In this document: positions 24,298 to 37,727 of the stretch, in pieces
Numbering within the stretch: position 1 is the first letter of the stretch
Layout of the letters: every line of letters begins with the position of its first letter
Assembly: GCA_031370645.1 (NCBI GenBank)
Contig: JANMQV010000022.1
Span: 1-37,727 of the forward strand
Direction: 5' to 3'
DNA: 37,727 nt
From: Candidatus Eiseniibacteriota bacterium
GTDB taxonomy: Bacteria; Eisenbacteria; RBG-16-71-46; SZUA-252
Translations under genes and position numbers: made by a program
The notes under the pieces: model-generated
Told to the model about the DNA's origin: nothing
The model's database searches: none
Seen by the model: only the letters and a program-made list of their open reading frames with translations

Positions 24298-26805
24298 CTA
24301 GGATGGGGCTGCCGGTGCGGCAGGCGCCTTGGCTGGCTCCGGGGGTGCGGGTCCGTCGGGCGCCTCGGACTTCGCTGCCTTGCCAGGCCGACGGATGCCC
24401 GCGAGCTTGGTGCGCTTCAGCATCAGCGCATTGATCGCCACGATCAGGGTGCTGCCGGACATCGACATCGCTGCGACCTCCGGGCTCAGCACGAACGGGT
24501 ACAAGACGCCCGCCGCGAGCGGGAACGCGACTAGGTTGTAGCCCACCGCCCACCAGAGGTTCTGGTGCATCTTTCGCAATGTCGCGCGCGATAGCTCGAT
24601 CGCGGCGACGATGTCGTACGGGTCGCTCCTCATCAATACGACATCGGCGCTTTCCATCGCGACGTCGGTGCCGGCGCCAATGGCGAACCCCACGTTCGCT
24701 TGAGTGAGCGCTGGCGCGTCGTTGACGCCGTCGCCCACCATCCCGACTCTCTTTCCCGCGGCCTGCAGCTCCTTCACCTTCTCGGCCTTCTTTCCCGGCA
24801 GCACGTCGGCCAACACGCTGTCGATGCCGAGATCCGCGGCGATGCGTTTGGCCGTCGCCGCGTTGTCGCCGGTGAGCATCACCACTTCAATCTTTCGTTC
24901 GCGCAGCTTGGCCACCGCCGCCTTGGAGGTCGGCCTGATCGCATCGGCGATGGCAATGAGCCCGATCACGCGGGCGGCCTGAGACACATGGACGACGGTG
25001 CGGCCGTCCCCCTGCAGGCGGGTGGCATCGGCCTCCAAGCGACCGAGCGCGAGCTTTTGCGTATCCATCAGCAGGCGGTTTCCGAGGAATACTGTTCCGC
25101 CAGCGGTCTCGGCGCGCGCGCCCATACCGTCGAGACTCTCGAAACCTGTCGGCGTTACGATCGTGAGCTTGGCCGCGCGGCGTACGATGGCCTGGGCCAG
25201 AGGATGGCCGGACCCCTGCTCGACGGCCGCGGCGGCCGCGAGCACCACGTCCTCGGTGACCCCGTCCGCAGGCACGATCGCCACGACTTCCGGCTGGCCG
25301 ACGGTGAGCGTACCGGTCTTGTCGAAGATGATCACATCGAGCTTGGTGGCGTCCTCGAGCGCCGAGGCGTTCTTGAACAGAATGCCGTTCATCGCGCCGA
25401 GGCCGGTTCCCACCATCACCGCCATGGGCGTGGCCAGTCCCAGCGCGTCCGGGCAGGCGATCACGAAGACCGTGATGGTTAGCGTTACCGCGAACAGCAG
25501 CGGCTCTCCAATCCACCAGAACCACACCGCGAAGGTCGTAAGACCGATGGCAATCGCGGCGATCACCAGCCATTGCGCGGCTTTGTCGGCAAGGAGTTGT
25601 GACGGGGCCTTTGAGTTCTGCGCCTCCTGAACCAGTTTTACGATCTGCGCCAGCGCCGTGTCGGCCCCGACCTTCGTCGCCTTGTAACGAAAACTCCCGC
25701 TCTTGTTGATCGTCGCCCCGATCACCGTGGCGCCCGGTCCCTTTTGGACTGGCATCGACTCGCCGGTGAGCATGGACTCGTCGACCATTGATTCGCCGGT
25801 CTCCACCGTGCCGTCGACGGGAATCTTTCCCCCCGGCCGCATCACGACGATCTCGCCCGCCAACACCTCCGCCGTCGGAACTTCCACTTCGACGCCGTTG
25901 CGGATCACCGAGGCCATCGCGGGGGTAAGCTTCATCAGCGCCTTGATGGCGGACGATGCACCCGCGCGAGCGCGCATTTCGAGCCAGTGGCCGAGCAAGA
26001 TAAAAACCAGCAGGACGGCGGCGGCTTCGAAGAACTGCCCGCCCCCCTTGAAAAAGAATGTGCTGCCGACACTGAACAGATAGCCGGTGCCGACGCTCAA
26101 CACCACCAGCACCGCCATGCTCAGGGTGCCGGTCTTGAGCGCGCGCCAGGCGGAGACGACGAACGGCCAGACCGGATAAAGTATCGCGGTGCTCGCCAGG
26201 AGGAACAGCCAGAGGTTGAGCTCCAGTCCAAACGGCGGAGCGGGCGGCTTGAAGAAACCTCCCATCGGGGCGTAGACGAAGATCGGCACGGTGAAGATCA
26301 GGCAAATCCAGAAACGGTTGCGCATGTCTCGGACCATGGCCGCCAGGTCCGTGCCGCCATGGCCCATCTCATGCGCCATCCCTGCAGGCATTCCCGCCTG
26401 CGTGTCCCGCGCCAGATGGCCTTTGTGGCCGTAGCCCGCGGGAGCCGCCGGCTCGGGCGCGGCGGCGGGCGCGACCGGGGCAGCATTCGGCACAGCGGCC
26501 AGTGGCGTTGAAGCGGAGGCTCGCGCCGCTTCCGGCGTTGGCACTACAGCACGCTCGAGAACGGGCTTGTGTTCGCTCACCTGCTTGGGTGGGGATTCGC
26601 CTGCGGTGTGATGTCCGATTTGGTGCACGGCAGCCTTGATATCGGCGACGTCGAGTTGAGTCTCATCGTAGCGCACGGTGGCGCTTCCCGCGGCGTAATT
26701 CACGGTAGCACTTTCCACACCCGGCACCTCGCCCAGCCGCTTTTCCACCTCGTCCACGCTCAGTGCTGAGAGCATGTCACGCACTTCAATGACGCTCGTT
26801 TGCAT
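24298..26805 (-). CDS. Heavy-metal (probably copper) translocating P1B-type ATPase
   Basis: Degenerate HMA domain, His/Met linker, [31 protein letters not shown] and MSxS TM motifs; SD GGGAGG. Confidence 0.95.
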
Positions 26806-26929: not shown

Positions 26930-27535
26930 TCATTGGACGGCCACGATGGTCTTGCCGCGGTCATTCCAGACATGGATGACAGGCTCGGTGAGATCGTGAT
27001 CGTATCCAAGAACGCTCAAGGACGCCGTGGCAAGGAGCAGGCGAGAACCTTCGATCGGCGCCAGCCCGATCCAACGAATGGCCAGAACGCGCAGGATGTC
27101 ACGATGACCAAAGACGAGCACGTTGCCGCCGCCCGCGCGAATGCGGCCGACAACACGGTCAGCACGCGCACCCACGGCATCGCTCGTTTCGCCGCCGGGG
27201 CTGCCGTCGCGGAGAAGGCGCCAGCCGGGGCGCTCCGCTCGGATATCGACGGTGCGTCTACCTTCGTAGGCGCCGTAATCCCACTCCTTCAGATCATCGT
27301 CCGCTTCGACCACAGAGCCCGGCATCGCGAGCTCGGCAGTGCGGCGGGCGCGCTGCAGCGGACTTGACAGAATGTGATCGAAATGGAGGCGGGTGAGGCG
27401 CGCCCCGACCTCGCCCGCGTGGCGTTCGCCTTGCTCGCTCAGCGGAAGATCGGTACGGCCGGTATGCTGTCCCGTCATCGTCCACGCGGTATCGCCGTGG
27501 CGCACGAGGCAGATTATCGGCAGCGCCTGGCTCAT
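26930..27535 (-). CDS. Histidine phosphatase (phosphoglycerate mutase-like) family protein
   Basis: LVRHG.T.W, HTGRTDLPL, SSPLQRARRT, EWDYG.YEG, GH. Confidence 0.93.
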   Translation of the reverse strand: MSQALPIICLVRHGDTAWTMTGQHTGRTDLPLSEQGERHAGEVGARLTRLHFDHILSSPLQRARRTAELAMPGSVVEADDDLKEWDYGAYEGRRTVDIRAERPGWRLLRDGSPGGETSDAVGARADRVVGRIRAGGGNVLVFGHRDILRVLAIRWIGLAPIEGSRLLLATASLSVLGYDHDLTEPVIHVWNDRGKTIVAVQ

Positions 27536-27942
27536 CTTGTTGCGCCGCTTGCGGCTCGTTGTGCGCCCCAGCGCCAGTCGCGTATTTCCGGCATGTCCTG
27601 GCCGTATTGCTCGATGTACCGCCTATGCTCGGTCAGCTTGTCCTTCAGCTCGCGCTTCAGGGCGATGCCCTTCTCGCCGGTCTGCGGCAGACGATCGACC
27701 ACGTCAGTCACCCCGTGCGGGTGCTCCGATGGCGGTTGGAGCCTCATGAGATCGATGGTGTTGACCACCCGAATGTTCAGGTCTGGCAGATGCTCGCGCA
27801 TGATCGAAACGGCGGCGAGCGTCTCCAATGTAGGTACGTCGCCGCAGCAGGCCATCACCACGTCTGGTGCCCCGCCCTCGTCGTTGCTGGCCCACCGCCA
27901 GATGCCTACAACTTCGATGCAGTGCTTCATGGCGGCATCCAG
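27532..27942 (-). pseudogene. xfp: Phosphoketolase C-terminal remnant with internal deletion (in frame with the upstream membrane gene)
   Basis: GIW.WASND..PDVVMACCGDVPTLETLAAV...RVVN..DLM.LQ...EHPHG is joined directly to DVVDRLP...EH..YI...GQDMPEIRDW.W. Confidence 0.9.
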
Positions 27943-28680
27943 CCGTGACGAAGCCGTTGAACCGGCCTCAATCGGGGGGAGAGAGGACACCTTCGTGGAC
28001 GTGGACCACGTCAGGTGCTCGTAGACGGCGGACCAGTACGCACCGAAGGCCGCCGCGAACAGCAGCTCCTCGACAGGCAGGCCAGCCACCAAGAGCCCGG
28101 AGAGTGCGGAAAGGTTCCAGACTCGTCCAATGTAGCCGGGGACGGTCGTTTCAAGGCCGAGCAGAAGGACGGTGTAGAACGCGACGAAGAGGGCGGCGCC
28201 CACCCACGATCTCGCTCTCAAGTCGGGCCGGCAGGCAATCGCCGCGAGCGAACCTGTTCCCATCGCCACGATCGCCGCGTAAATTGGATTCCATCGTAAG
28301 AAGAATAGCGGGAGGAAAACGAGTACCGGCACCACCAGTGCGATCCGGTGGAGGCGGTGGCGACGGTGGTCATGCTCCTCCGCCGGCAGTCGCATGGTCA
28401 CGCGGCGGGTGAGCACGTCGTAGAGCACGAGGCCCACGCCCCCAATGGCGAAGCTGAAAATCAGGCTTTCGATATCGAACCCCGTGCGCTGAGCGAGCTC
28501 GAACAAACTGGGCGGGGACCAGTAGGCGGGCACGAACAGCGGCTCGGTCAGCCCGAACGGCATCGTGAGCAAGCTCGCCCGAAGCATGATCCGCCGCCGG
28601 GCGGGAACGCCCCAGTAGAGAGCGAGCCACGGAAGGAGGAACCCGCTCGACCAGACCAGCCACACGTAGTGATCGCGCAT
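27532..28680 (-). CDS. Lycopene-cyclase-domain-like membrane protein carrying a fused Xfp tail
   Basis: Hydrophobic N-terminal ~230 aa with TEPLFVP.YW.PPS, DIES.IF, WN and LPVEELLFA motifs; SD GGAGAGG; open frame continues through the xfp remnant. Confidence 0.75.
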   Translation of the reverse strand: MRDHYVWLVWSSGFLLPWLALYWGVPARRRIMLRASLLTMPFGLTEPLFVPAYWSPPSLFELAQRTGFDIESLIFSFAIGGVGLVLYDVLTRRVTMRLPAEEHDHRRHRLHRIALVVPVLVFLPLFFLRWNPIYAAIVAMGTGSLAAIACRPDLRARSWVGAALFVAFYTVLLLGLETTVPGYIGRVWNLSALSGLLVAGLPVEELLFAAAFGAYWSAVYEHLTWSTSTKVSSLPPIEAGSTASSRLDAAMKHCIEVVGIWRWASNDEGGAPDVVMACCGDVPTLETLAAVSIMREHLPDLNIRVVNTIDLMRLQPPSEHPHGVTDVVDRLPQTGEKGIALKRELKDKLTEHRRYIEQYGQDMPEIRDWRWGAQRAASGATR

Positions 28681-29472: not shown

Positions 29473-32400
29473 TCACGACTCCTCCGAACTACTAGCCAAG
29501 TATTTCTCCGCCGACTTCCGCCCGAAGCGATAGAAGACCGCCGGCGTGACGATCGTGTTGAGCAATGTCGAACTGACGAGGCCGCCCACGATGACGGTCG
29601 CGACCGGATAGAGTATTTCCTTGCCCGATTCGCCCTTCGACATGATGAGCGGGATGAGCGCCATCCCGGCGGTGAGGGCCGTCATCATGACCGGCACCAA
29701 GCGCTCAAGCGAGCCTCGGACAACCATTTTGGCGTCGAATACCTCCCCCTCTTCCTTCATCAAGTGCAGGTAGTGGGAAATCATCATGATGGTGTTACGC
29801 GAGGCGATGCCGGTCAGAGTGATGAAGCCGACCATCGAGGCTACCGAAAGCGTGCCGCCGGTCAAGAAAATCGCCACCACGCTGCCAATCAGCGCGAGCG
29901 GTATGTTGAGCAAGATCTGGAGCACGATCGCCACCTGACGGAAGTGGGCGTACAGCACGAGGAACATCGCCGCCAGCGAGAAAAGGCTGAGGATCCCGAT
30001 TAACCGGGTCGCCGACTGCTGGCTCTCGAACTGTCCTCCATAGGTGATGAAATAGCCGGTTGGAAGCGTGACCTTGGCGCCCACCGCCTTCTGAATTTCT
30101 TCGACGACTCGGCCCAAGTCTCTCCCGCTGACGTTCGCCGAGACCACGATGCGGCGCTGCACGTTCTCGTGCTGGATGACGTTGGGGCCGCGCGACTCTT
30201 CGACGGCCGCGATCGCGGCGAGCGGTACTTTCGCCCCGGACGGCGTGTCGATGAGGGCGTTTCGAATCGCCTCCAGGCTCCCTCGCGATTCATCGTCGAA
30301 TCGGACCACGAGGTCGAACGTCCGCTGGCCCTCGAGGACCTGCGACACGACGCGGCCGTTCAGCGCCGTCTCCAGCGCCCGGTTCAGCGTGCCGACATTG
30401 AGGCCGTACCGGGCGAGGGCGACGCGGTCGCCCTCAATGCGGATCTGTGGCACCAGCACCTGTTTCTCGGTCTGCAGGTCGACCACGCCCGGCACGGTTC
30501 CCATGGCCGCTTGAATCTCGGATGCCTTGGCGCGCAATTGATCGAGGTCGCTCCCGAATAGCTTGACCGCGATCTGCGCCCGGACCCCCGAGAGCAGGTG
30601 GTCGAGACGGTGAGAGATCGGCTGGCCGATGTTGACGAACACGCCCGGAATCTCGGCCATCCGTGCGCGAATCTCGCCCAACACCACCTCGCGGCTCCGT
30701 TTCGAAGGCCGGAAATCGACATCGATCTCCGTATAGTGGACACCCTCGGCGTGTTCATCGAGTTCGGCGCGTCCCGTGCGCCGGCCGGTTGAGATGACCT
30801 CCGGAACCCGGAGGAGCTGCTGCTCGGCGATGGTGCCGATCCGATTCGATTCGCTCAGGGACGTCCCGGGAGCTGCGACGACGTTGACGGTCGCCGTGCC
30901 CTCGTTGAACGGCGGCAGGAACTCCCGGCCCATCAGGGGGACCAACGCCCCCGCGGCCAGAACGAGCGCGACGGCTCCGCCGATGACGAAATTCGGGTGC
31001 GGTAGCGTGACGTCGAGAAGCCGCCGGTCCCACTGCTTCAGGTGCCGAACGACGAACGAGTCCTTTTCCGCAGCCATGACCTTGGCGCGCGGGAGGAGAT
31101 AGAGACAGAGCGCCGGCGATATCGTGAGGGAAACCACGAACGAGGCGAGGATCGAGACGATGTAGGCGACGCCCAGCGGCGCGAAGAGCCGGCCCTCGAT
31201 ACCGCTCAGGGCGAAGAGCGGCATGAAGACGAGCACGACCAGGATCGTGGCGTAGACGATGGAGTTCCGGACTTCGGACGACGCCCGATAGACCACTTCG
31301 AGCGCCGGGCGCGGTACCGCGGCATGGCGATTTTCCCGCAGGCGGCGAAATACGTTCTCGACGTTCACGATCGCGTCGTCCACCAGCTCGCCGATCGCGA
31401 TCGCGAGACCGCCGAGGGTCATGGTGTTGATCGAGATATTGAAAAGTCGGAACACGACCGCGGCCGTGACGAAGGAGAGCGGGATCGCGGTCAGCGTGAT
31501 CGCGGTCGTCCGGAAGTTGAGCAAAAAGAGGAACAGAACGATCAGCACGAGAATGGCGCCGTCTCGGAGCGCCTCCTCGACGTTTCGAATCGAGGCTTCG
31601 ATGAAATTGGCCTGCTGGAACAGAGGACGCATTCGCACATCCTTCGGCAGCGACGGTCGAAGTTCCTCCAGCGATGCCTCGATCCGCCGGGTCAAATCGA
31701 TCGTGCTGGCGCCCGGCTGCTTTTGGATCGAAAGGATTACCGATGGCTTCCCATCCACGCTGCCATCGCCCCGCTTGACCAGCGCTCCAACACCGACGCT
31801 TCCAACCTGCTTGAGGAGCACCGGCACGCCGTTTCGGGTCGCGACGACGGTGTTAAGAAGCTGCTCGGGGTTCCGCAGGCGGCCCACGTTTCGAATTAAA
31901 TACTCCTGCGACTGGGCTTCGAGGTATCCGCCGGTGCTGTTTTCGTTACTGGACGCCACCGCCTTCTCGACATCTTCGAGCGACAGCCCCAGCGCCGCCA
32001 GGCGCTGGGGGTTGACGCGCACCTGGTACTGTTTCACGCCGCCGCCGATCGGAATCACCTGCGAGACTCCCGGAATGGTCAGGAGCCGCTGACGCACGAC
32101 CCAGTCCGCGAGCGTGCGCATCTCCATCGGCGACGTGGCGCCGTTCGAACTCTCCAGCCCGAGGAGCATGATCTCGCCCATGATCGAAGAGACCGGCCCC
32201 ATCGCTGGAGCAACGCCCTGCGGCAGATGTTCGGCCGCGAGTTGGAGCTTTTCGCCCACCAACTGGCGGTCGCGGTAAATGTCCGTGCCCCAGGCAAACT
32301 CGACGGTCACGACCGAGAGACCGATCCCCGACGTCGATCGCACGCGCTCGACGCCGGGCGCGCCGTTCAGGGTCGTCTCGATCGGCAGGCTGACGAGCGT

Positions 32401-32586
32401 TTCGACCTCCTCCGGCGCCAGCCCCGGCGACTCGCTGAGGATCGTCACGGTCGGGCGGTTGAGGTCGGGAAATACGTCCACGGGAAGCTGAAAGATGACC
32501 GCCATGCCGTAAATGAGCAGCAGCACGGCCGCCGCCACGACGAATAGCCTGTTTCTCAGCGCGAACAAAATGATTCGATCGAACAT
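29473..32586 (-). CDS. CusA/CzcA-family heavy-metal efflux RND permease
   Basis: 1037 aa. PVDVFPDL, PEEVE.LVS.PIE, NTMTLGGLAIAIGELVDDAIV, EGRLFAPL, EFLPPFNEG, ERLVPVMMTAL. Confidence 0.96.
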   Translation of the reverse strand: MFDRIILFALRNRLFVVAAAVLLLIYGMAVIFQLPVDVFPDLNRPTVTILSESPGLAPEEVETLVSLPIETTLNGAPGVERVRSTSGIGLSVVTVEFAWGTDIYRDRQLVGEKLQLAAEHLPQGVAPAMGPVSSIMGEIMLLGLESSNGATSPMEMRTLADWVVRQRLLTIPGVSQVIPIGGGVKQYQVRVNPQRLAALGLSLEDVEKAVASSNENSTGGYLEAQSQEYLIRNVGRLRNPEQLLNTVVATRNGVPVLLKQVGSVGVGALVKRGDGSVDGKPSVILSIQKQPGASTIDLTRRIEASLEELRPSLPKDVRMRPLFQQANFIEASIRNVEEALRDGAILVLIVLFLFLLNFRTTAITLTAIPLSFVTAAVVFRLFNISINTMTLGGLAIAIGELVDDAIVNVENVFRRLRENRHAAVPRPALEVVYRASSEVRNSIVYATILVVLVFMPLFALSGIEGRLFAPLGVAYIVSILASFVVSLTISPALCLYLLPRAKVMAAEKDSFVVRHLKQWDRRLLDVTLPHPNFVIGGAVALVLAAGALVPLMGREFLPPFNEGTATVNVVAAPGTSLSESNRIGTIAEQQLLRVPEVISTGRRTGRAELDEHAEGVHYTEIDVDFRPSKRSREVVLGEIRARMAEIPGVFVNIGQPISHRLDHLLSGVRAQIAVKLFGSDLDQLRAKASEIQAAMGTVPGVVDLQTEKQVLVPQIRIEGDRVALARYGLNVGTLNRALETALNGRVVSQVLEGQRTFDLVVRFDDESRGSLEAIRNALIDTPSGAKVPLAAIAAVEESRGPNVIQHENVQRRIVVSANVSGRDLGRVVEEIQKAVGAKVTLPTGYFITYGGQFESQQSATRLIGILSLFSLAAMFLVLYAHFRQVAIVLQILLNIPLALIGSVVAIFLTGGTLSVASMVGFITLTGIASRNTIMMISHYLHLMKEEGEVFDAKMVVRGSLERLVPVMMTALTAGMALIPLIMSKGESGKEILYPVATVIVGGLVSSTLLNTIVTPAVFYRFGRKSAEKYLASSSEES

Positions 32587-32598
32587 GGCCGCGCCTCG

Positions 32599-34089
32599 TC
32601 AGTTTCCGACGCCGACGACCGGCGCCGTGAGCAAGGGATAGCCGCCCGTGACGACCACACGATCGCCCGGATTCACTTCGCCGGTGACCGCCACCCGTGC
32701 GCCGAGGCTGGTTCCCAAAATCACCTCGCGCGCGGTGAAGCGCTCCGGGGCGGTGTGGACAAAGACGAGCTTCCGTCCCTCCTTCTCGAACACCGCGCTC
32801 CGGGGGACGACGAGCGACGATTCCACCCCCCCCTGTTCGATGCCGACGTCGACCAGCGCCCCGATCCTCAAACGGCCGCCGGCATTCGGCACTTCGAACC
32901 AGGCTTCGATGGCGCCCGGAACCTCACCCTGTGTCACTCCCAGCGCGACCCGCCGCCCCGTCAACGCGAGATCCGGCATGCTCTCCGTCGAAATGACGGC
33001 ACGGGTCGAGCGCTGCACGCTCGCGATGTCAGCCTCGTAGACGTCGGCATGCACCCAGACGACGGACGGGTCGAGCAGGGTCATGATCTTTTGCCCCGCT
33101 TCAACGAGCTGGCCGTTCACCACGAAGACGCCGGTCAGGACACCCGTCAGCGGGGCGCGCAGAACGAGATCGTCGACGACGGTGAGGCGTGCAACCGGCG
33201 CACCCCTGGTCACGCTCTGCCCCATCATCGGCGCTCGCGCATTGGCGAAAAAGATTCGACCCGACTGGGGCGCCACGATTTCGATCTCGCCACCACCTCG
33301 GGGAGCGACACGCCCGAGCACACGGAGTCGACTCTGTACCGGCTCACGCCGCAGCGGCGCGGTGATGACACCCAGCAGGAACTGCGACTCCTTGGCGACG
33401 TAGACTTGCGCCCCCGGGCCGACCGGCGCACCGGATGCGGCCGGGGCGTTGTCATGGCCTTCGTGAGCCGTCGCCCGAGGCGCGAGGACGAGAACAATCA
33501 GCAGGAGCGCCCGCGCCGCCGTGGCTCGGCGCCGGACCATCAAGAGCGATGCGCCAAGGAGCGCCACGAGGCCGCCCAGCAGCCACATCCAAAGGGGTCC
33601 GGTTGGCGCGGGGCCGGCGGCGGTGGCGAGGCGTTCCCGACTCACTTGGAGTCCCGCCAGGGCGAAGCGCCCCTCTCCTCCCGGGCCGGCGATGGTCAAC
33701 AGGACCGTGTAGGAACCCGTATCCGCCGGCGCCTGAAAGGGAAGCTGGTAGACGCCCGCTCGCTTCGTCGCGATACCCGTGCCCGTCGAGAGTTCCCGAC
33801 CTCCGGAACGAAGACTCCACGAGACCGTGGCGTGGGCGCTCGAAACATTCGTCTGAAAATCGCTGACGTAAATATCCAGCGCCGACTTGATTCCCGGCCG
33901 CAACGGGTCGCTCTTGAGCACGACTTCATAGCGGTCCGACACAGCCGTGAGAACTTGCCGGCTCGGGATCGCCGCGTCGCTCGCCCCGGGCGCGGCATCG
34001 CTCCCCGCGCGCGCCGCGACCCGCGGCGCCGTGCCGCCGACAAGCAGAAGCACCAGAAACGGAGTCAACAGCCGCGCCAAGCGGATCAT
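32599..34089 (-). CDS. RND periplasmic adaptor subunit with extra N-terminal domain and internal TM segments
   Basis: Start re-called at ATG 34089 (ATGA overlap with tolC). Lipoyl halves (APQSGRI...GQSVTRG; RAPLTG...GQLVEAG), VWVHADVYE, VPRSAV, GDRVVVTG. Confidence 0.9.
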   Translation of the reverse strand: MIRLARLLTPFLVLLLVGGTAPRVAARAGSDAAPGASDAAIPSRQVLTAVSDRYEVVLKSDPLRPGIKSALDIYVSDFQTNVSSAHATVSWSLRSGGRELSTGTGIATKRAGVYQLPFQAPADTGSYTVLLTIAGPGGEGRFALAGLQVSRERLATAAGPAPTGPLWMWLLGGLVALLGASLLMVRRRATAARALLLIVLVLAPRATAHEGHDNAPAASGAPVGPGAQVYVAKESQFLLGVITAPLRREPVQSRLRVLGRVAPRGGGEIEIVAPQSGRIFFANARAPMMGQSVTRGAPVARLTVVDDLVLRAPLTGVLTGVFVVNGQLVEAGQKIMTLLDPSVVWVHADVYEADIASVQRSTRAVISTESMPDLALTGRRVALGVTQGEVPGAIEAWFEVPNAGGRLRIGALVDVGIEQGGVESSLVVPRSAVFEKEGRKLVFVHTAPERFTAREVILGTSLGARVAVTGEVNPGDRVVVTGGYPLLTAPVVGVGN

Positions 34090-35486
34090 CGGGCGCTTCC
34101 CCCTTCGAGACGAGCGAGATCGACTCCGACACTGGATTCCAGGTCGCTGCGGGCGTCCCAGTAGGCTTCCCCCGCTTCGAGTTGTCCGAGGAGCGTTTCC
34201 ACAAGTCGCCCTTTCTGCGTGAGATAAGAGTCGAGCGAGATGCGCCCGTCGGCGTAAGCATCTCGGATCAGAACGAGGTCCTGCCGCGTGCGAGAGGACC
34301 GCGCGAGATAGAGTCGGTAGATGCCGGTAGCGTCCTGAAATCGCCGTAACCGGCCCTGAACTTCCATTTGGGTTCGCAGGCGAAAGCGGGCGTACTCGGC
34401 CTCGCGTCGCAGGACCTCCGCGGAAGCACGGGCTCGGCCCGCTTGATTCCTCTGCCAAAGCGGAAGCGGCGCGCTGAACCGAATGTTCCAAAGTTTGTCG
34501 GTGGATTGGACTCCCCCGATCCCCCCGACGATCGCGGGCTCGCCGGTGAAGTCGTCGGCCGAGAATGAACGACGCTCGCGCGTCAGGCCCGCCCCCACGG
34601 TCAGGTTGGGCCGGGCTTCGCGATCCGCCAGCGCGAGTTCCGCCCGTCCTTCCGCGATCCGGCGGCGGAGAACCTCTCCCGTTCCCCGCACGCGCAGCGC
34701 GACGACGACGACCGAGTCCTCCGGCGCCCGGAGCGTGTCCGCCTGAATGTCTCCGCTCAGCAGCGTCGACTCCGGCAGATCCCGCCCCATGGCGAGCCCG
34801 AGGGCGACGATCGCTTGGCGGAGTCCGGCGCGCGCGCGGAACACTTGGACTTCCAACCGAAGAAGGTCCAGTTCCGTCAACCGGCCCGTGACGGGTGTCA
34901 TGGAGCCGTCGCGCACTCGCGCCTGCGTCGCCACGACGACCCGGCGATCGAGCCCGGCCAACTCATCAACGATTTGCAATCGATCCTGAAGGAAGAGCGT
35001 GTGAGCGAAACGGGCGCGGACGTCGAATTCGATTTCCTGCAACGCGGCTCCCCACTCGGCCGCGCTGGCTTGCGAACGCGCGGTCGCAACCGCCTGCCTT
35101 GCCCCTCGCTTGCCCCATAATTCCAGTTCCTGGCTGATCCCCAGTTCGATCGAGCCCTCGCTGCCCGATCCCAGCGAGCCCCCGCCCCGCGCGGCCCGAA
35201 CCTCCAATTCCGGGTTGAAGGAGGGAACCTTCGCGAACATGGATTCGGCGCGTGCCACGGAGAGATTCGCCTCCGCAATCGGCAAATCGGGATGGCTCCG
35301 GCGCGCGATCTCGATCGCCGACGACAGTGTCAGCGGGCGAGGGATCGCAGACGACCCGCTGGCCGACAGCTCCGGCCCCGCCGCATCGGGGGGGCGAGAC
35401 TGAGCCCCGGAATCATTCGGAAGTGCGGCCATGAGGAGTGTCGTGCATGCGATCGCCCAGAGGCGATCTCTCAGCCGAAATACCAT
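34086..35486 (-). CDS. TolC-family outer membrane efflux protein (CzcC-like)
   Basis: LTLSSAIEIA...HPDL, NPEL, SQELELWGKR..R, PLPLWQRNQ, AY..G.IS; first structural gene of the RND operon. Confidence 0.92.
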   Translation of the reverse strand: MVFRLRDRLWAIACTTLLMAALPNDSGAQSRPPDAAGPELSASGSSAIPRPLTLSSAIEIARRSHPDLPIAEANLSVARAESMFAKVPSFNPELEVRAARGGGSLGSGSEGSIELGISQELELWGKRGARQAVATARSQASAAEWGAALQEIEFDVRARFAHTLFLQDRLQIVDELAGLDRRVVVATQARVRDGSMTPVTGRLTELDLLRLEVQVFRARAGLRQAIVALGLAMGRDLPESTLLSGDIQADTLRAPEDSVVVVALRVRGTGEVLRRRIAEGRAELALADREARPNLTVGAGLTRERRSFSADDFTGEPAIVGGIGGVQSTDKLWNIRFSAPLPLWQRNQAGRARASAEVLRREAEYARFRLRTQMEVQGRLRRFQDATGIYRLYLARSSRTRQDLVLIRDAYADGRISLDSYLTQKGRLVETLLGQLEAGEAYWDARSDLESSVGVDLARLEGGSAR

Positions 35487-35587
35487 TCCGTTCCCACCTT
35501 TCCGTCAGGTCGACAGGCGGCCTGACATGCATCCCGCGCACCATCGCAACGGCGCGCGCGCTTCCACTGAAGGAGGAGGCTAGGAAG

Positions 35588-36010
35588 CTAGGCGGAGTAC
35601 GGCGGACTGCGGGGAGATTGCGGAGCAACTGATGGACCGGGTGGAGAAGCCGACCGTGAGTCCGACGCGATTCCACGGAACACGCTGCTCACGTCGAGTG
35701 CGCGAGCTGGAGGGGTGGATATCGCGAGAAGCACGTAGGTGGATGCCGGGGCGGCCAGCGAGGGGATTGGTGGTGCCGTTGCGGCGGGGAGCTCAATGCA
35801 AGCGCAGCCGCAATCGTCCTTCGGCGAGACGGGAACGTGCGCCGGCGAGGACTCAGGATGAACGTGGTGTTCATCCACGGCATGGTGATCGCCTTCTACC
35901 GTGACGGTCGAATCATGGTCCGGCATGCTCGCGCACTGCCCCTGCTCAAACGGCAGCAGGACCGCGACGAGAAGCGCAAACACGACGCGAAGCCTCAACA
36001 AGAACTTCAT
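35588..36010 (-). CDS. DUF2946/CruR-like His/Cys-rich leader protein ending in RSPP
   Basis: ATG 36010 with SD GAGGTG. Hydrophobic N-terminus, DHHAVDEHHVH, CGCAC, Pro-rich tail PQSPRSPPYSA*. Confidence 0.75.
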   Translation of the reverse strand: MKFLLRLRVVFALLVAVLLPFEQGQCASMPDHDSTVTVEGDHHAVDEHHVHPESSPAHVPVSPKDDCGCACIELPAATAPPIPSLAAPASTYVLLAISTPPARALDVSSVFRGIASDSRSASPPGPSVAPQSPRSPPYSA

Positions 36011-36133
36011 CCGATCGACACCTCGTGCACTCACAATTTCGAGGATCAGTTCAAGCCCGTCCGCCTGTCAACTACCTTGTTTACACCTAGCGCTGTCGCC
36101 AGTTCCCAAGAGCCAAGGCATCCTCTTGCGCTC

Positions 36134-36331
36134 CTACCGATCCTCGTGTCGTTCCAGTAGCTCGTCTCGAGTGCTGAATCCGTTCGAGAAATCTTCGGCC
36201 GCTTCCCAGAACTCGCGGTGAGCGCTAATTTCGTCATTGCTGAATGTCGGCCGGTCCTTCGCAGGTTCAAGGTAATACCAATCCATCTCCTCGATGGCCG
36301 CCGACATTTGAGGACGCATCCAATGGCGCAT
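36134..36331 (-). CDS. Small acidic hypothetical protein (65 aa)
   Basis: Strong SD GGGAGGT before ATG 36331; sigma-54 motif upstream; no recognisable family. Confidence 0.45.
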   Translation of the reverse strand: MRHWMRPQMSAAIEEMDWYYLEPAKDRPTFSNDEISAHREFWEAAEDFSNGFSTRDELLERHEDR

Positions 36332-36427
36332 GGTCCACCTCCCAAGTAGTCGTGTGCCCTTCATCGCCTCATGGCACAGGCTGGAACTCGATGTGCCCTA
36401 CCTGCTCCATACCGTGTCGGAACAGAG

Positions 36428-36443
36428 GGCGATATTCGTGCCA
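36428..36443 (-). promoter_or_regulatory. Sigma-54 (-24/-12) promoter
   Basis: TGGCACG-AATA-TCGCC with exact spacing. IHF-like CATCAA-N4-TTG at 36472-36484 upstream. Confidence 0.65.
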
Positions 36444-36614
36444 CTGCTCTCGAACCCAGCGGGGACCAGCCCAAGGCATTGATGTGACGCGCGATGCGGG
36501 GTGAGGTGGAACCTTTCGTCGTGCGACCGTGCTCCCGGAAGCGAGGACCTAACGGAGGACTTTACGACCGAGAAGGCAGAAACTTCAAAGGGACGATCGC
36601 ACCCGACAACTGAC

Positions 36615-37727
36615 TTACGCCGGCCCCGCAGCGCGTGTCGGCTCGGTGCAGCGGAGCATCTCTCGTAGGATGGCCAATTCCTCACGCGCACGAACGACGA
36701 GGACTCGCACGCTCGAGTCGCGTTGCGCGATGTCGACGTCGGGGACGGCGGCTCGATTCTTCTCTTCCTCCAGTCGCACGCCGGCGAACGACAGCGCCGA
36801 CGCCACATCTCGACGAACCTGGCTGCTGTTCTCTCCGATTCCTCCGGTGAACACCAAGACATCCAGCCCGCCGAGAACGCTCGCCATCGCGCCGACGGCG
36901 CGGCGCACCGACAACACGAAGCGGTCGTACGCGAGGGCCGCCCGCGGCGAGCCCCCTTCCGCGGCACGGAGCACGTCGCGGAGATCCCCCGATACGCCCG
37001 AAACGCCGAGCAAGCCGGAGCGCGTGGTAAGCGTTTCGAACAATTCGGCGGCGGTCACCCCGTGCTGCATCTGGAGGTAGAGGAGCAGCCCCGGATCGAC
37101 AGAACCGGAGCGCGTCCCCATCATCAGCCCCTCGAGCGTGCTGAATCCCATGGTCGTATCGACGGAGCGTCCTTCTGCTACGGCCGATACCGAGCATCCG
37201 CTCCCCAGATGGCAGACGACAAGGCGCCCTACCGATCCTCCCGTCAATTCCCCGGCGCGCTGCGCCGCATAGGCGACACTGATTCCATGGAACCCGAACC
37301 GCCGGAGATCCCATTTCTCAGTCCACTCGAAGGGCAGCGCGTAGCCGGCGGCTGCCGCGGGAATGGACGCGTGGAACGCCGTGTCGAACGCCGCGAACTG
37401 CGGGACGGTCGGATCGAGCGCCTGAACGGCGTCGATGGCATCGAGCGCGGGGCGCATATGGAGCGGGTCACGGGCCACGAGGGTCTCGAGTTCCGCGCGA
37501 ACCGTCGCATCCACGACGATCGTCTCGCGAAACCGGGTCCCGCCGTGAACGATGCGATGCCCCACGGCGTCGTAACCCGGAACGTCGCGAAGCACGGCCT
37601 CGATCCTAGTGACGTGGTCCGCGTCCCCCGGGTCGGCCCATGCCACGGTATCTCCCGCCAGGCTCGACTCGTCCTTCGCGTCGAACAGAGCCCATTTGAG
37701 CGTGCTCGACCCGCAGTTGAGAACAAG
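36615..37727 (-). CDS. ackA: Acetate/propionate kinase (5' end lies just beyond the window)
   Basis: Frame is open to the window edge: LVLNCGSSTLKW, GHRIVHGG, PLH, FDTAFH, RRFGFHGIS, HLGSGCS, DTTMGF..LEGLMMGTRSG, FTGGIGENS, EE. Confidence 0.96.
   Translation of the reverse strand, partial: LVLNCGSSTLKWALFDAKDESSLAGDTVAWADPGDADHVTRIEAVLRDVPGYDAVGHRIVHGGTRFRETIVVDATVRAELETLVARDPLHMRPALDAIDAVQALDPTVPQFAAFDTAFHASIPAAAAGYALPFEWTEKWDLRRFGFHGISVAYAAQRAGELTGGSVGRLVVCHLGSGCSVSAVAEGRSVDTTMGFSTLEGLMMGTRSGSVDPGLLLYLQMQHGVTAAELFETLTTRSGLLGVSGVSGDLRDVLRAAEGGSPRAALAYDRFVLSVRRAVGAMASVLGGLDVLVFTGGIGENSSQVRRDVASALSFAGVRLEEEKNRAAVPDVDIAQRDSSVRVLVVRAREELAILREMLRCTEPTRAAGPA

Follow-up and report, generated by a model that had tools for sequence, protein, structure and literature searches.

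We analyzed a 37,727-nucleotide stretch of DNA, called the window here, from a Candidatus Eiseniibacteriota bacterium (GCA_031370645.1, contig JANMQV010000022.1, positions 1-37,727, forward strand), in which a small open reading frame (ORF), termed the leader, precedes a metal efflux operon that begins with the gene for an outer-membrane efflux protein (OEP). From sequence comparison we consider it likely that the leader is a nascent-chain metal sensor of the kind represented by CutF and CruR, and that stalling of the ribosome on it would unmask the pump genes' ribosome-binding site. The analysis gave the conservation of a C-terminal motif and its register, a pattern of selection that separates coding from RNA constraint, a conserved RNA structure and the linkage of the leader to the operon. 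From these we infer the arrest itself, the binding of a metal, the identity of that metal, the direction of the response and sensing in the periplasm. An earlier sequence-only reading of the window had proposed a metal-sensing arrest leader at this place, and the comparative data support that proposal.

In CruR a RAPP motif lies three residues before the end of the peptide, copper sensed via CXXC lifts the arrest, and Rho ends transcription ahead of an importer gene (PMC9426467). In CutF periplasmic copper is reported to prolong stalling at PPP, which opens a stem-loop covering cutO's ribosome-binding site (PMC9973294; bioRxiv 10.1101/2025.02.05.636593). RxPP with Ala or Gly as x is an established arrest core, whose Arg tolerates no substitute, while Gly strengthens the arrest and Ser is partially permissive. 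Random arrest screens also yielded RSPP, proteomes are depleted of RxPP, and small ORFs with RAPP or RGPP precede metal genes (PMC12992588). Literature searches returned general papers on CruR, CutF and RAPP, and no paper on the Eisenbacteria family described here or on a natural RSPP leader. The main text of PMC12992588 does not contain the word efflux, and the names Eisenbacteria, RSPP, SilD and CusD do not occur in three supplementary text files of PMC9973294.

The leader and its C-terminal motif

Judged by its conservation, the leader is a real, conserved gene. Its start was placed at the ATG at 36010, because the initial Met is nearly invariant among relatives. The elements that the sequence-only reading had described, namely a 140-amino acid ORF with a transmembrane-like N-terminus, a His cluster, CGCAC and RSPP at 35600-35611, with three codons to the stop and a 101-nt gap to the next gene, were all found again base for base. 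They are as follows:

35588..36010, minus strand: leader ORF of 140 codons, with ATG at 36010 and TAG at 35588-35590
35930..36007, minus strand: predicted hydrophobic signal peptide or signal-anchor helix, residues 2-27 (AlphaFold2 helix)
35933-35935, minus strand: codon of C26, an invariant column
35858..35890, minus strand: His cluster DHHAVDEHHVH, residues 41-51, read from the sequence; most relatives have HH..DHDCC here
35798..35812, minus strand: Cys cluster C67-G-C69-A-C71, read from the sequence; family consensus (D)PCCC, then ..LP
35600..35611, minus strand: RSPP, the predicted arrest motif, with R134 at 35609-35611, S135 at 35606-35608, P136 at 35603-35605 and P137 at 35600-35602
35588..35599, minus strand: Y138, S139, A140 and TAG, the three codons between motif and stop together with the stop

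The leader thus ends in RSPP-YSA-stop, and the ATG of the OEP gene (35486) lies 101 nt past it. The hydrophobic N-terminal segment reads MKFLLRLRVVFALLVAVLLPFEQGQC; the signal helix ends in a conserved LLP(L/F)E..(H/Q)C, in which P20 and C26 are invariant. AlphaFold2 predicted a helix over residues 2-27 at a pLDDT of about 95. For the rest of the leader the pLDDT was 46-65, with a short helix at residues 107-112 as the sole other secondary structure. A lipoprotein signal at C26 was set aside, since E-Q-G-Q or E-L-G-H before C26 is unlike the usual lipobox. Profile scans matched the leader to no Pfam or NCBIfam family.

Relatives were collected by two database searches. Among 5.8 billion proteins a word-indexed search recovered 22 relatives (E<=0.01), nearly all of them 139-142 amino acids long and 38-58% identical to the leader, and an exhaustive phmmer search of 1.84 billion representatives gave 24 at E<=0.001. 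Both searches together gave 44 relatives, 41 of which carry RxPP, exactly three further residues and the stop. The exceptions are two truncated or frameshifted fragments (P0034 and P0042) and one unrelated repeat protein that was a spurious match (P0044). A six-frame search found the family in 28 of the 206 genomes of the window's phylum, and in only 1 of 7 other genomes of the window's own genus. The motif stood in the same register in 29 of the 30 loci from this search, a count that leaves out six further places that had no locus; the remaining locus is cut by a contig end. As the sequence-only reading required, orthologues keep R[AGS]PP, at a fixed distance from the stop.

Relatives with named records are mostly from metagenome-assembled genomes (MAGs) of Candidatus Eisenbacteria. 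One locus, L002, belongs to a record titled as a Betaproteobacteria MAG. In sequence its leader region nearly equals that of L010 and closely resembles those of the other main-clade loci, which, where they have record titles, mostly come from Candidatus Eisenbacteria MAGs; the contig may have been mis-binned or recently transferred. Two leader-OEP units, L018 and L046, lie about 8 kb apart on one contig (G161:C32), with tails RSPP-YSA and RAPP-ASA. This suggests paralogous sensors, perhaps for different metals.

An alignment of 32 sequences, which reaches down to 21% identity and includes RAPP and RGPP paralogues, retains only P20, C26, R134, P136 and P137 as invariant residues. Of 71 unique motif-bearing sequences, 47 have Ser as the x of RxPP, 18 have Gly and 6 have Ala, and in all 71 complete sequences exactly three residues follow the two Pro residues. 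This set includes locus-derived sequences chosen with a pattern that demands the motif, so that these are not an unbiased sample. The family thereby follows the rule of the RAPP class, with an invariant Arg, two invariant Pro residues and a small residue between them (Ala or Gly, and partly Ser). Ser in the second position appears in ApdA-type peptides only as a partially permissive mutant or from screens (PMC12992588), whereas it is the commonest natural form here.

Throughout the family, 62-65 residues separate the Cys cluster from R134. The family consensus for the Cys residues is DHDCC plus (D)PCCC, that is CC...CCC. In the window's genus the CC pair is replaced by His and CCC by CxCxC. 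The CxCxC variant noted earlier is thus present in the window, but it is peculiar to this genus and does not represent the family. The replacement may shift metal specificity.

Codon usage and RNA structure at the leader end

In a DNA alignment of 24 sequences, P133, R134, P136 and P137 each use three to four synonymous codons, and selection at these positions therefore acts on the peptide. The two final sense codons and the stop are nearly fixed: Ser139 is TCC in 21 of 21 Ser codons (Ser132 uses TCT, TCG and TCC about equally), Ala140 is GCC in 20 sequences and GCT in 4, and the stop is TAG in 23 of 24. Here selection therefore acts on the RNA. Column identity is 79-87% over the leader 3' end and the intergenic region, compared to about 50% for the protein.

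RNAalifold paired the frozen codons with the OEP gene's Shine-Dalgarno (SD) sequence. This anti-SD:SD pairing, the 7-bp helix P1, was recovered on both 14 and 24 sequences. The elements of the conserved structure, scored as one fixed structure on the 24 sequences, are:

35590..35596, minus strand: 5' strand of P1 (anti-SD), UCC GCC U, formed by Ser139, Ala140 and the first base of the stop (RNAalifold)
35493..35499, minus strand: 3' strand of P1, the OEP SD, 6 nt before the ATG; AGGUGGG here and AGGCGGA in most relatives
35582-35588 / 35529-35535, minus strand: junction helix J, 89.9% paired, 2 pairs changed on both sides
35571-35575 / 35561-35565, minus strand: hairpin P2, 83.2% paired, 1 pair changed on both sides
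35550-35557 / 35536-35543, minus strand: hairpin P3, 91.7% paired, 4 pairs changed on both sides
35504..35526, minus strand: hairpin P4 (GUCAGG...CCUGAC), directly 5' of the SD, 85.3% paired, 3 compensatory pairs (U-A to C-G, A-U to G-C)

Helix J (35529..35588) encloses hairpins P2 and P3. Over the whole structure 89.9% of cells were paired, compared to 29-47% when the partners were slid by 1-3 columns, and P1 reached 98.2%. Cells changed on both sides numbered 30, a value reached in 0 of 500 shuffles, and 11 pairs had such changes (reached in 10 of 500). The compensatory changes sit mainly in P3, P4 and the junction helix. In L031 and L036 a further pair extending P1, formed by the third base of the Tyr codon and the base 3' of the SD, seemed compensatory; it was unpaired in most sequences and was dropped. 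Rfam had no match for 35300-36200 at E<=1. By eye alone, complementary stretches that might form an anti-SD pairing were also seen in the distant RAPP/RGPP paralogues (L039-L047).

The position of P1 relative to the motif is such that a stalled ribosome might open it. Toeprinting of CruR put the P and A sites of the arrested ribosome on the two Pro codons of RAPP (PMC12992588). If this geometry is applied to the leader, P136 (35603-35605) is predicted in the P site and P137 in the A site, and the anti-SD strand covers +10 to +16, counted from the P-site codon's first base. With a ribosome footprint on mRNA of the usual size, and by analogy with CruR, the anti-SD strand would lie inside, or at the entry of, the mRNA channel of the arrested ribosome. 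We folded each of the 24 mRNAs with the footprint of the stalled ribosome forced single-stranded. The mean probability of the SD being unpaired rose from 0.04 to 0.26, with a rise of at least 0.10 in 22 of the 24 sequences; an equal-length mask further upstream left it at 0.04. The leader thus has a conserved, SD-occluding helix that overlaps the predicted footprint of the arrested ribosome, as in RNA switches of the SecM, MifM and CutF type.

The same region could instead serve attenuation as in CruR. The stalled ribosome would then shield a C-rich Rho-loading region, its release would lead to Rho termination before the OEP gene, and the RNA helices would be secondary. We regard this as an unlikely main mechanism. 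The motif has the CruR register, three residues before the end, and a possible Rho-loading region can be pointed to, which resembles the C>G bubble of cruR (PMC9426467):

35565..35880, minus strand: C-over-G region of the mRNA, possible Rho loading; C minus G peaks at +33% (78-nt windows)

C-richness is, however, also expected from coding for a sequence rich in Pro, Ala and Ser, and the intergenic region is highly structured and conserved, unlike the long unstructured region of cruR. The frozen Ser139, Ala140 and stop codons indicate SD pairing, and the polarity of CruR, in which metal relieves stalling, would have an exporter shut off by its own substrate. Rho termination and unmasking of the SD are compatible with each other, as stalling would mean ON in both.

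The efflux operon and its linkage to the leader

The genes downstream of the leader encode an OEP, an adaptor and an RND pump, and a copper-type ATPase gene follows about 3 kb beyond the pump gene on the same strand:

34086..35486, minus strand: OEP/TolC/CusC-CzcC-like outer-membrane efflux protein, 466 amino acids (PF02321, E 1.2e-29)
32599..34089, minus strand: periplasmic adaptor, CzcB/CusB-like, 496 amino acids (TIGR00999/TIGR01730/HlyD_D23)
29473..32586, minus strand: heavy-metal RND pump of the CusA/CzcA family, 1037 amino acids (TIGR00914, 844.6 bits against a cut-off of 701.45)
24298-26805, minus strand: copper-type P1B ATPase, CopA-like, with an N-terminal CopZ-like metal-binding domain (TIGR01511, E 1.2e-176)

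The ATG of the adaptor overlaps the stop of the OEP gene (ATGA), and 12 nt separate the adaptor stop from the RND start. The fourth transmembrane (TM4) segment of the RND pump reads AIGELVDDAIVNVEN, which we take to resemble a CusA-type motif. It is without the DFG-DGA-VEN signature, which marks the divalent HME1/2 pumps (PMC3637150).

The linkage between leader and OEP gene extends over the family. The distance between them is 97-104 nt in 24 distinct loci, and 12 of 18 scanned open frames downstream of a leader were OEP genes. The other six comprised one cupredoxin-like frame, one with a sub-threshold BNR match and four without a match, one of which (L038) was identified as a truncated OEP gene by the search for OEP orthologues. 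The cupredoxin-like case is L040, where a RAPP-type leader paralogue (1483-1920) stands before a cupredoxin-like protein (1968-2462; PF13473, E 2.6e-15) instead of an OEP. In the opposite direction, the window OEP used as query gave 21 matches at E<=1e-30 in 20 of the 206 phylum genomes. The leader lay directly upstream in 17 of these 21 places, which is the outcome of the survey of ORFs upstream of homologous tolC genes that had been proposed for this locus. One further place (genome G107) had a family-like leader with RGPP plus two residues, two lay at contig ends, and in the last (genome G191) another small Cys/His-rich ORF, which lacks RxPP, stood upstream.

A CusA/CzcA-family pump, a copper-type P1B ATPase about 3 kb away and a RAPP paralogue before a cupredoxin-like gene provide the metal context of the leader. 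Cu(I)/Ag(I) would be the most probable ligand in the family, with a softer divalent ion as the alternative for the His-rich variant of the window's genus.

The genetic context would also suit a leader ORF that encodes a working periplasmic metal-binding protein, a chaperone or buffer like CusF or CzcI, merely coupled to the OEP gene via P1, with RxPP serving the mature protein or its turnover. The Cys/His-rich sequence, predicted to be exported, agrees with this, any terminating ribosome would also open P1, and CzcI and similar small periplasmic proteins precede czcCBA, CzcI being described as having no Pro motif (PMC9973294). However, conservation is confined to the signal helix, Cys cluster and tail, and the rest is predicted to be disordered; the invariant residues are exactly those of the arrest core, in the register of CruR; and RxPP is strongly avoided in ordinary proteins (PMC12992588). 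We consider a chaperone or buffer somewhat less probable even than Rho attenuation. Very improbable is a monitor of secretion or of the envelope, like SecM or ApdP, that senses Sec, YidC or outer-membrane assembly and not metal: an RxPP tail with a signal sequence is found in arrest peptides linked to Sec/YidC (PMC7897499, PMC10987492), but the downstream genes encode a metal RND pump and not sec or yidC, and the Cys/His clusters are conserved at a fixed distance from the arrest site.

A scan for the sigma-70 promoter consensus over 35350-36650 found none, including upstream of the leader; the same scan gave a weak terminator-like site at 36283-36297, within chance expectation. Between the acetate kinase gene and the leader lies a 76-amino acid acidic ORF (36134-36364, minus strand), which had no NCBIfam match at E<=1e-5. 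The adaptor has an N-terminal extension of about 190 residues with its own signal-like start, a beta-rich region (weak Invasin_D3 match, E 0.0053), a second hydrophobic segment and, ahead of the CzcB-like part, a HEGHD motif. The G191 orthologue (L087 11-1558) shares this extension. A 382-amino acid ORF (27532-28680, minus strand) matches phosphoketolase models of about 800 positions, with total scores far below the cut-offs; its best stretch aligns residues ~247-326 with model positions ~600-680. This ORF may be a fragment or remnant.

Known arrest peptides and the proposed mechanism

The sequence-only reading took the leader for a variant of CruR and CutF and suggested a search with the DUF2946 profile (PF11162). 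That search was negative. With a gathering score of 23.7 bits for the profile, neither the window protein nor any of 32 diverse family members matched at E<=1, and a six-frame search of the leader's own genome at E<=10 gave no match at the leader locus. In a positive control on other small ORFs from this phylum, 9 of 9 matched PF11162 (best E 2.9e-5). These nine (L049, L050, L052, L057, L060, L065, L066, L067 and L070) are CruR-like ORFs of about 90-110 amino acids, with HHH...CXXC and, 44-46 residues further on, RAPP or RGPP close to the end; in 7 of 9 two or three residues separate the motif from the stop. Their spacing matches the published 45 residues (PMC9426467), and the 62-65 residues of the leader family fall outside it. 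Comparison of profiles by hhalign gave the family alignment A1 a probability of 10.3% over 16 columns against the DUF2946-like alignment A3, and the family alignment A4 4.4% over 17 columns, in the tail only in both cases. An embedding search with a language model returned, as a lead only, a cluster with 23% PF11162 members at rank 13 (score 0.95). The tail of the family is of the DUF2946 type, with R[S/G/A]PP near the end. C67-G-C69-A-C71 formally contains CxxxC, which is not conserved in the family. The leader family would thus be a functional analogue or variant of CruR and CutF that is not demonstrably a member of DUF2946, and the relation may be very divergent or convergent.

Among the known systems closest to the leader is CutF of Rhodobacter capsulatus (cutFOG). 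Both are small leaders with Cys residues, exported or predicted to be so, just upstream of a metal-detoxification gene, and in both stalling at a C-terminal Pro motif, proposed here for the leader, would melt RNA over the next ribosome-binding site and turn expression ON with metal. Upstream Cys residues of CutF were proposed to cooperate with its metal motif, a further point of likeness. With 140 amino acids, PP at residues 136-137 and a same-strand neighbour at 101 nt, the leader falls within the operational filters for CutF-like proteins (<150 amino acids, PP within 15 residues of the end, same-strand neighbour at <1000 nt; PMC9973294). Unlike the leader family, CutF is described as a DUF2946 protein that stalls at PPP in an EF-P-dependent manner and has no RxPP; its metal motif is CXXXC and its target a multicopper oxidase. 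The masking strand of the leader also differs from that of CutF in that it lies within the leader's own last codons and closes a multi-helix junction.

The class of the downstream gene is not unusual either. The most frequent neighbours of CutF-like proteins are OEP/RND genes, with nodes labelled SilD and CusD (Ozturk et al. 2023, PMC9973294), and OEP PF02321, the neighbour class of the leader, comes first in that listing, with ACR_tran and HlyD_D23. Gating of an exporter, which the sequence-only reading had noted for this locus, therefore does not set it apart. The inverted logic suggested for it stands in so far as the polarity would be opposite to that of CruR, but it is simply the published logic of CutF.

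With CruR (Bp2923 of Bordetella pertussis, the DUF2946 prototype) the leader shares a peptide predicted to be disordered, the leading place in a metal operon, an ORF whose 3' half holds a C>G region, and the position of the motif three residues before the end. CruR carries CXXC 45 residues before RAPP, whereas the leader family has 62-65 residues and a CC/CCC or CxCxC cluster (PMC9426467). CruR is further reported to control an importer and to act through Rho, with copper relieving the stalling, a dispensable signal peptide and an intergenic region of 162 nt. ApdA, ApdP, ApcA and SecM are likewise small exported proteins, encoded upstream of a regulated gene, that carry R-x-P-P close to the C terminus, with the Arg and both Pro residues invariant (PMC12992588; PMC10951233, PMC7897499). 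These peptides monitor Sec/YidC activity, unlike a leader that precedes a metal operon.

For the proposed metal sensor the sequence of events would be as follows. The leader would be a regulatory and not a structural product, an exported, intrinsically disordered, Cys/His-rich peptide that arrests translation at R134-S135-P136 / P137. In free mRNA, UCCGCCU would pair with the OEP SD, held in place by the junction helix and three hairpins, and the pump would be poorly translated. A ribosome arrested at RSPP would cover or unwind the anti-SD strand, so that the SD becomes free for a second ribosome to initiate on the OEP gene, and coupling would carry translation on to the adaptor (ATGA overlap) and the RND pump (12-nt gap). 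At the point of arrest about 64 residues would part the Cys cluster from the peptidyl-transferase centre. Since this length would span the ribosomal tunnel and the Sec translocon, the cluster should stand at the periplasmic face beside C26. Metal bound there would abolish the force, from pulling or folding, by which the arrest is normally released, and high periplasmic metal would thereby prolong stalling and turn the exporter ON, as published for CutF.

Several observations weigh against this mechanism. RSPP is only partially permissive in the ApdA and ApdP contexts (PMC12992588), and the window copy has no CC pair at residues 49-50, which most relatives have. P1 has no compensatory change, only one-sided, G-U-compatible ones; because all its changes are one-sided, P1 is supported by conservation and codon freezing and not by covariation. 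The fold of the single sequence was no more stable than that of shuffles (z = 0.53), and we relied on the comparative analysis because this z-score is not significant. The effect of the footprint mask was modest, in that the masked SD was still mostly paired (0.26 unpaired), and L003 and L037 did not respond. The distant family-like leader of G107 (L091 718-1248, plus strand) has RGPP plus two residues (QV) and stands before an OEP that is only 31% identical. In G191 the OEP orthologue (58% identity) is preceded by a 153-amino acid Cys/His-rich exported ORF (L087 3087-3548, minus strand) with KPP and GPP and no RxPP tail; this ORF may be a degenerate or alternative leader.

A further-reaching interpretation, which we offer only tentatively, is that the leaders, unrelated to DUF2946, evolved independently into a family of transmembrane metal-sensing arrest peptides that is so far found mainly in Candidatus Eisenbacteria. 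RSPP, as a weaker natural core, might then act as a tunable brake, and the spacer of 62-65 residues as a molecular ruler for tunnel plus Sec translocon that puts the Cys cluster beside Cys26. The spacer of 44-46 residues in CruR-type leaders would instead place the sensor just outside the ribosome, in the cytoplasm. On this interpretation a few codons would combine the stall register, the stop context and the anti-SD.

Nascent-chain metal sensing by ribosome arrest is experimentally established only for CruR and CutF, both proteobacterial DUF2946 proteins and neither controlling an efflux pump. The principle and the efflux context have been published before. What the leader family would add is an uncultured phylum and a sequence family that Pfam does not recognise, with RSPP as the prevailing natural core, a long spacer that puts the distance from sensor to stall about 19 residues off that of cytoplasm-sensing leaders, and a design in which stall site, stop and anti-SD lie within 22 nt. 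Relatives of the leader are annotated as hypothetical wherever they are named; if the leader acts as proposed, their annotation would improve, and the pumps downstream of them would be predictable as metal-inducible without a two-component system.

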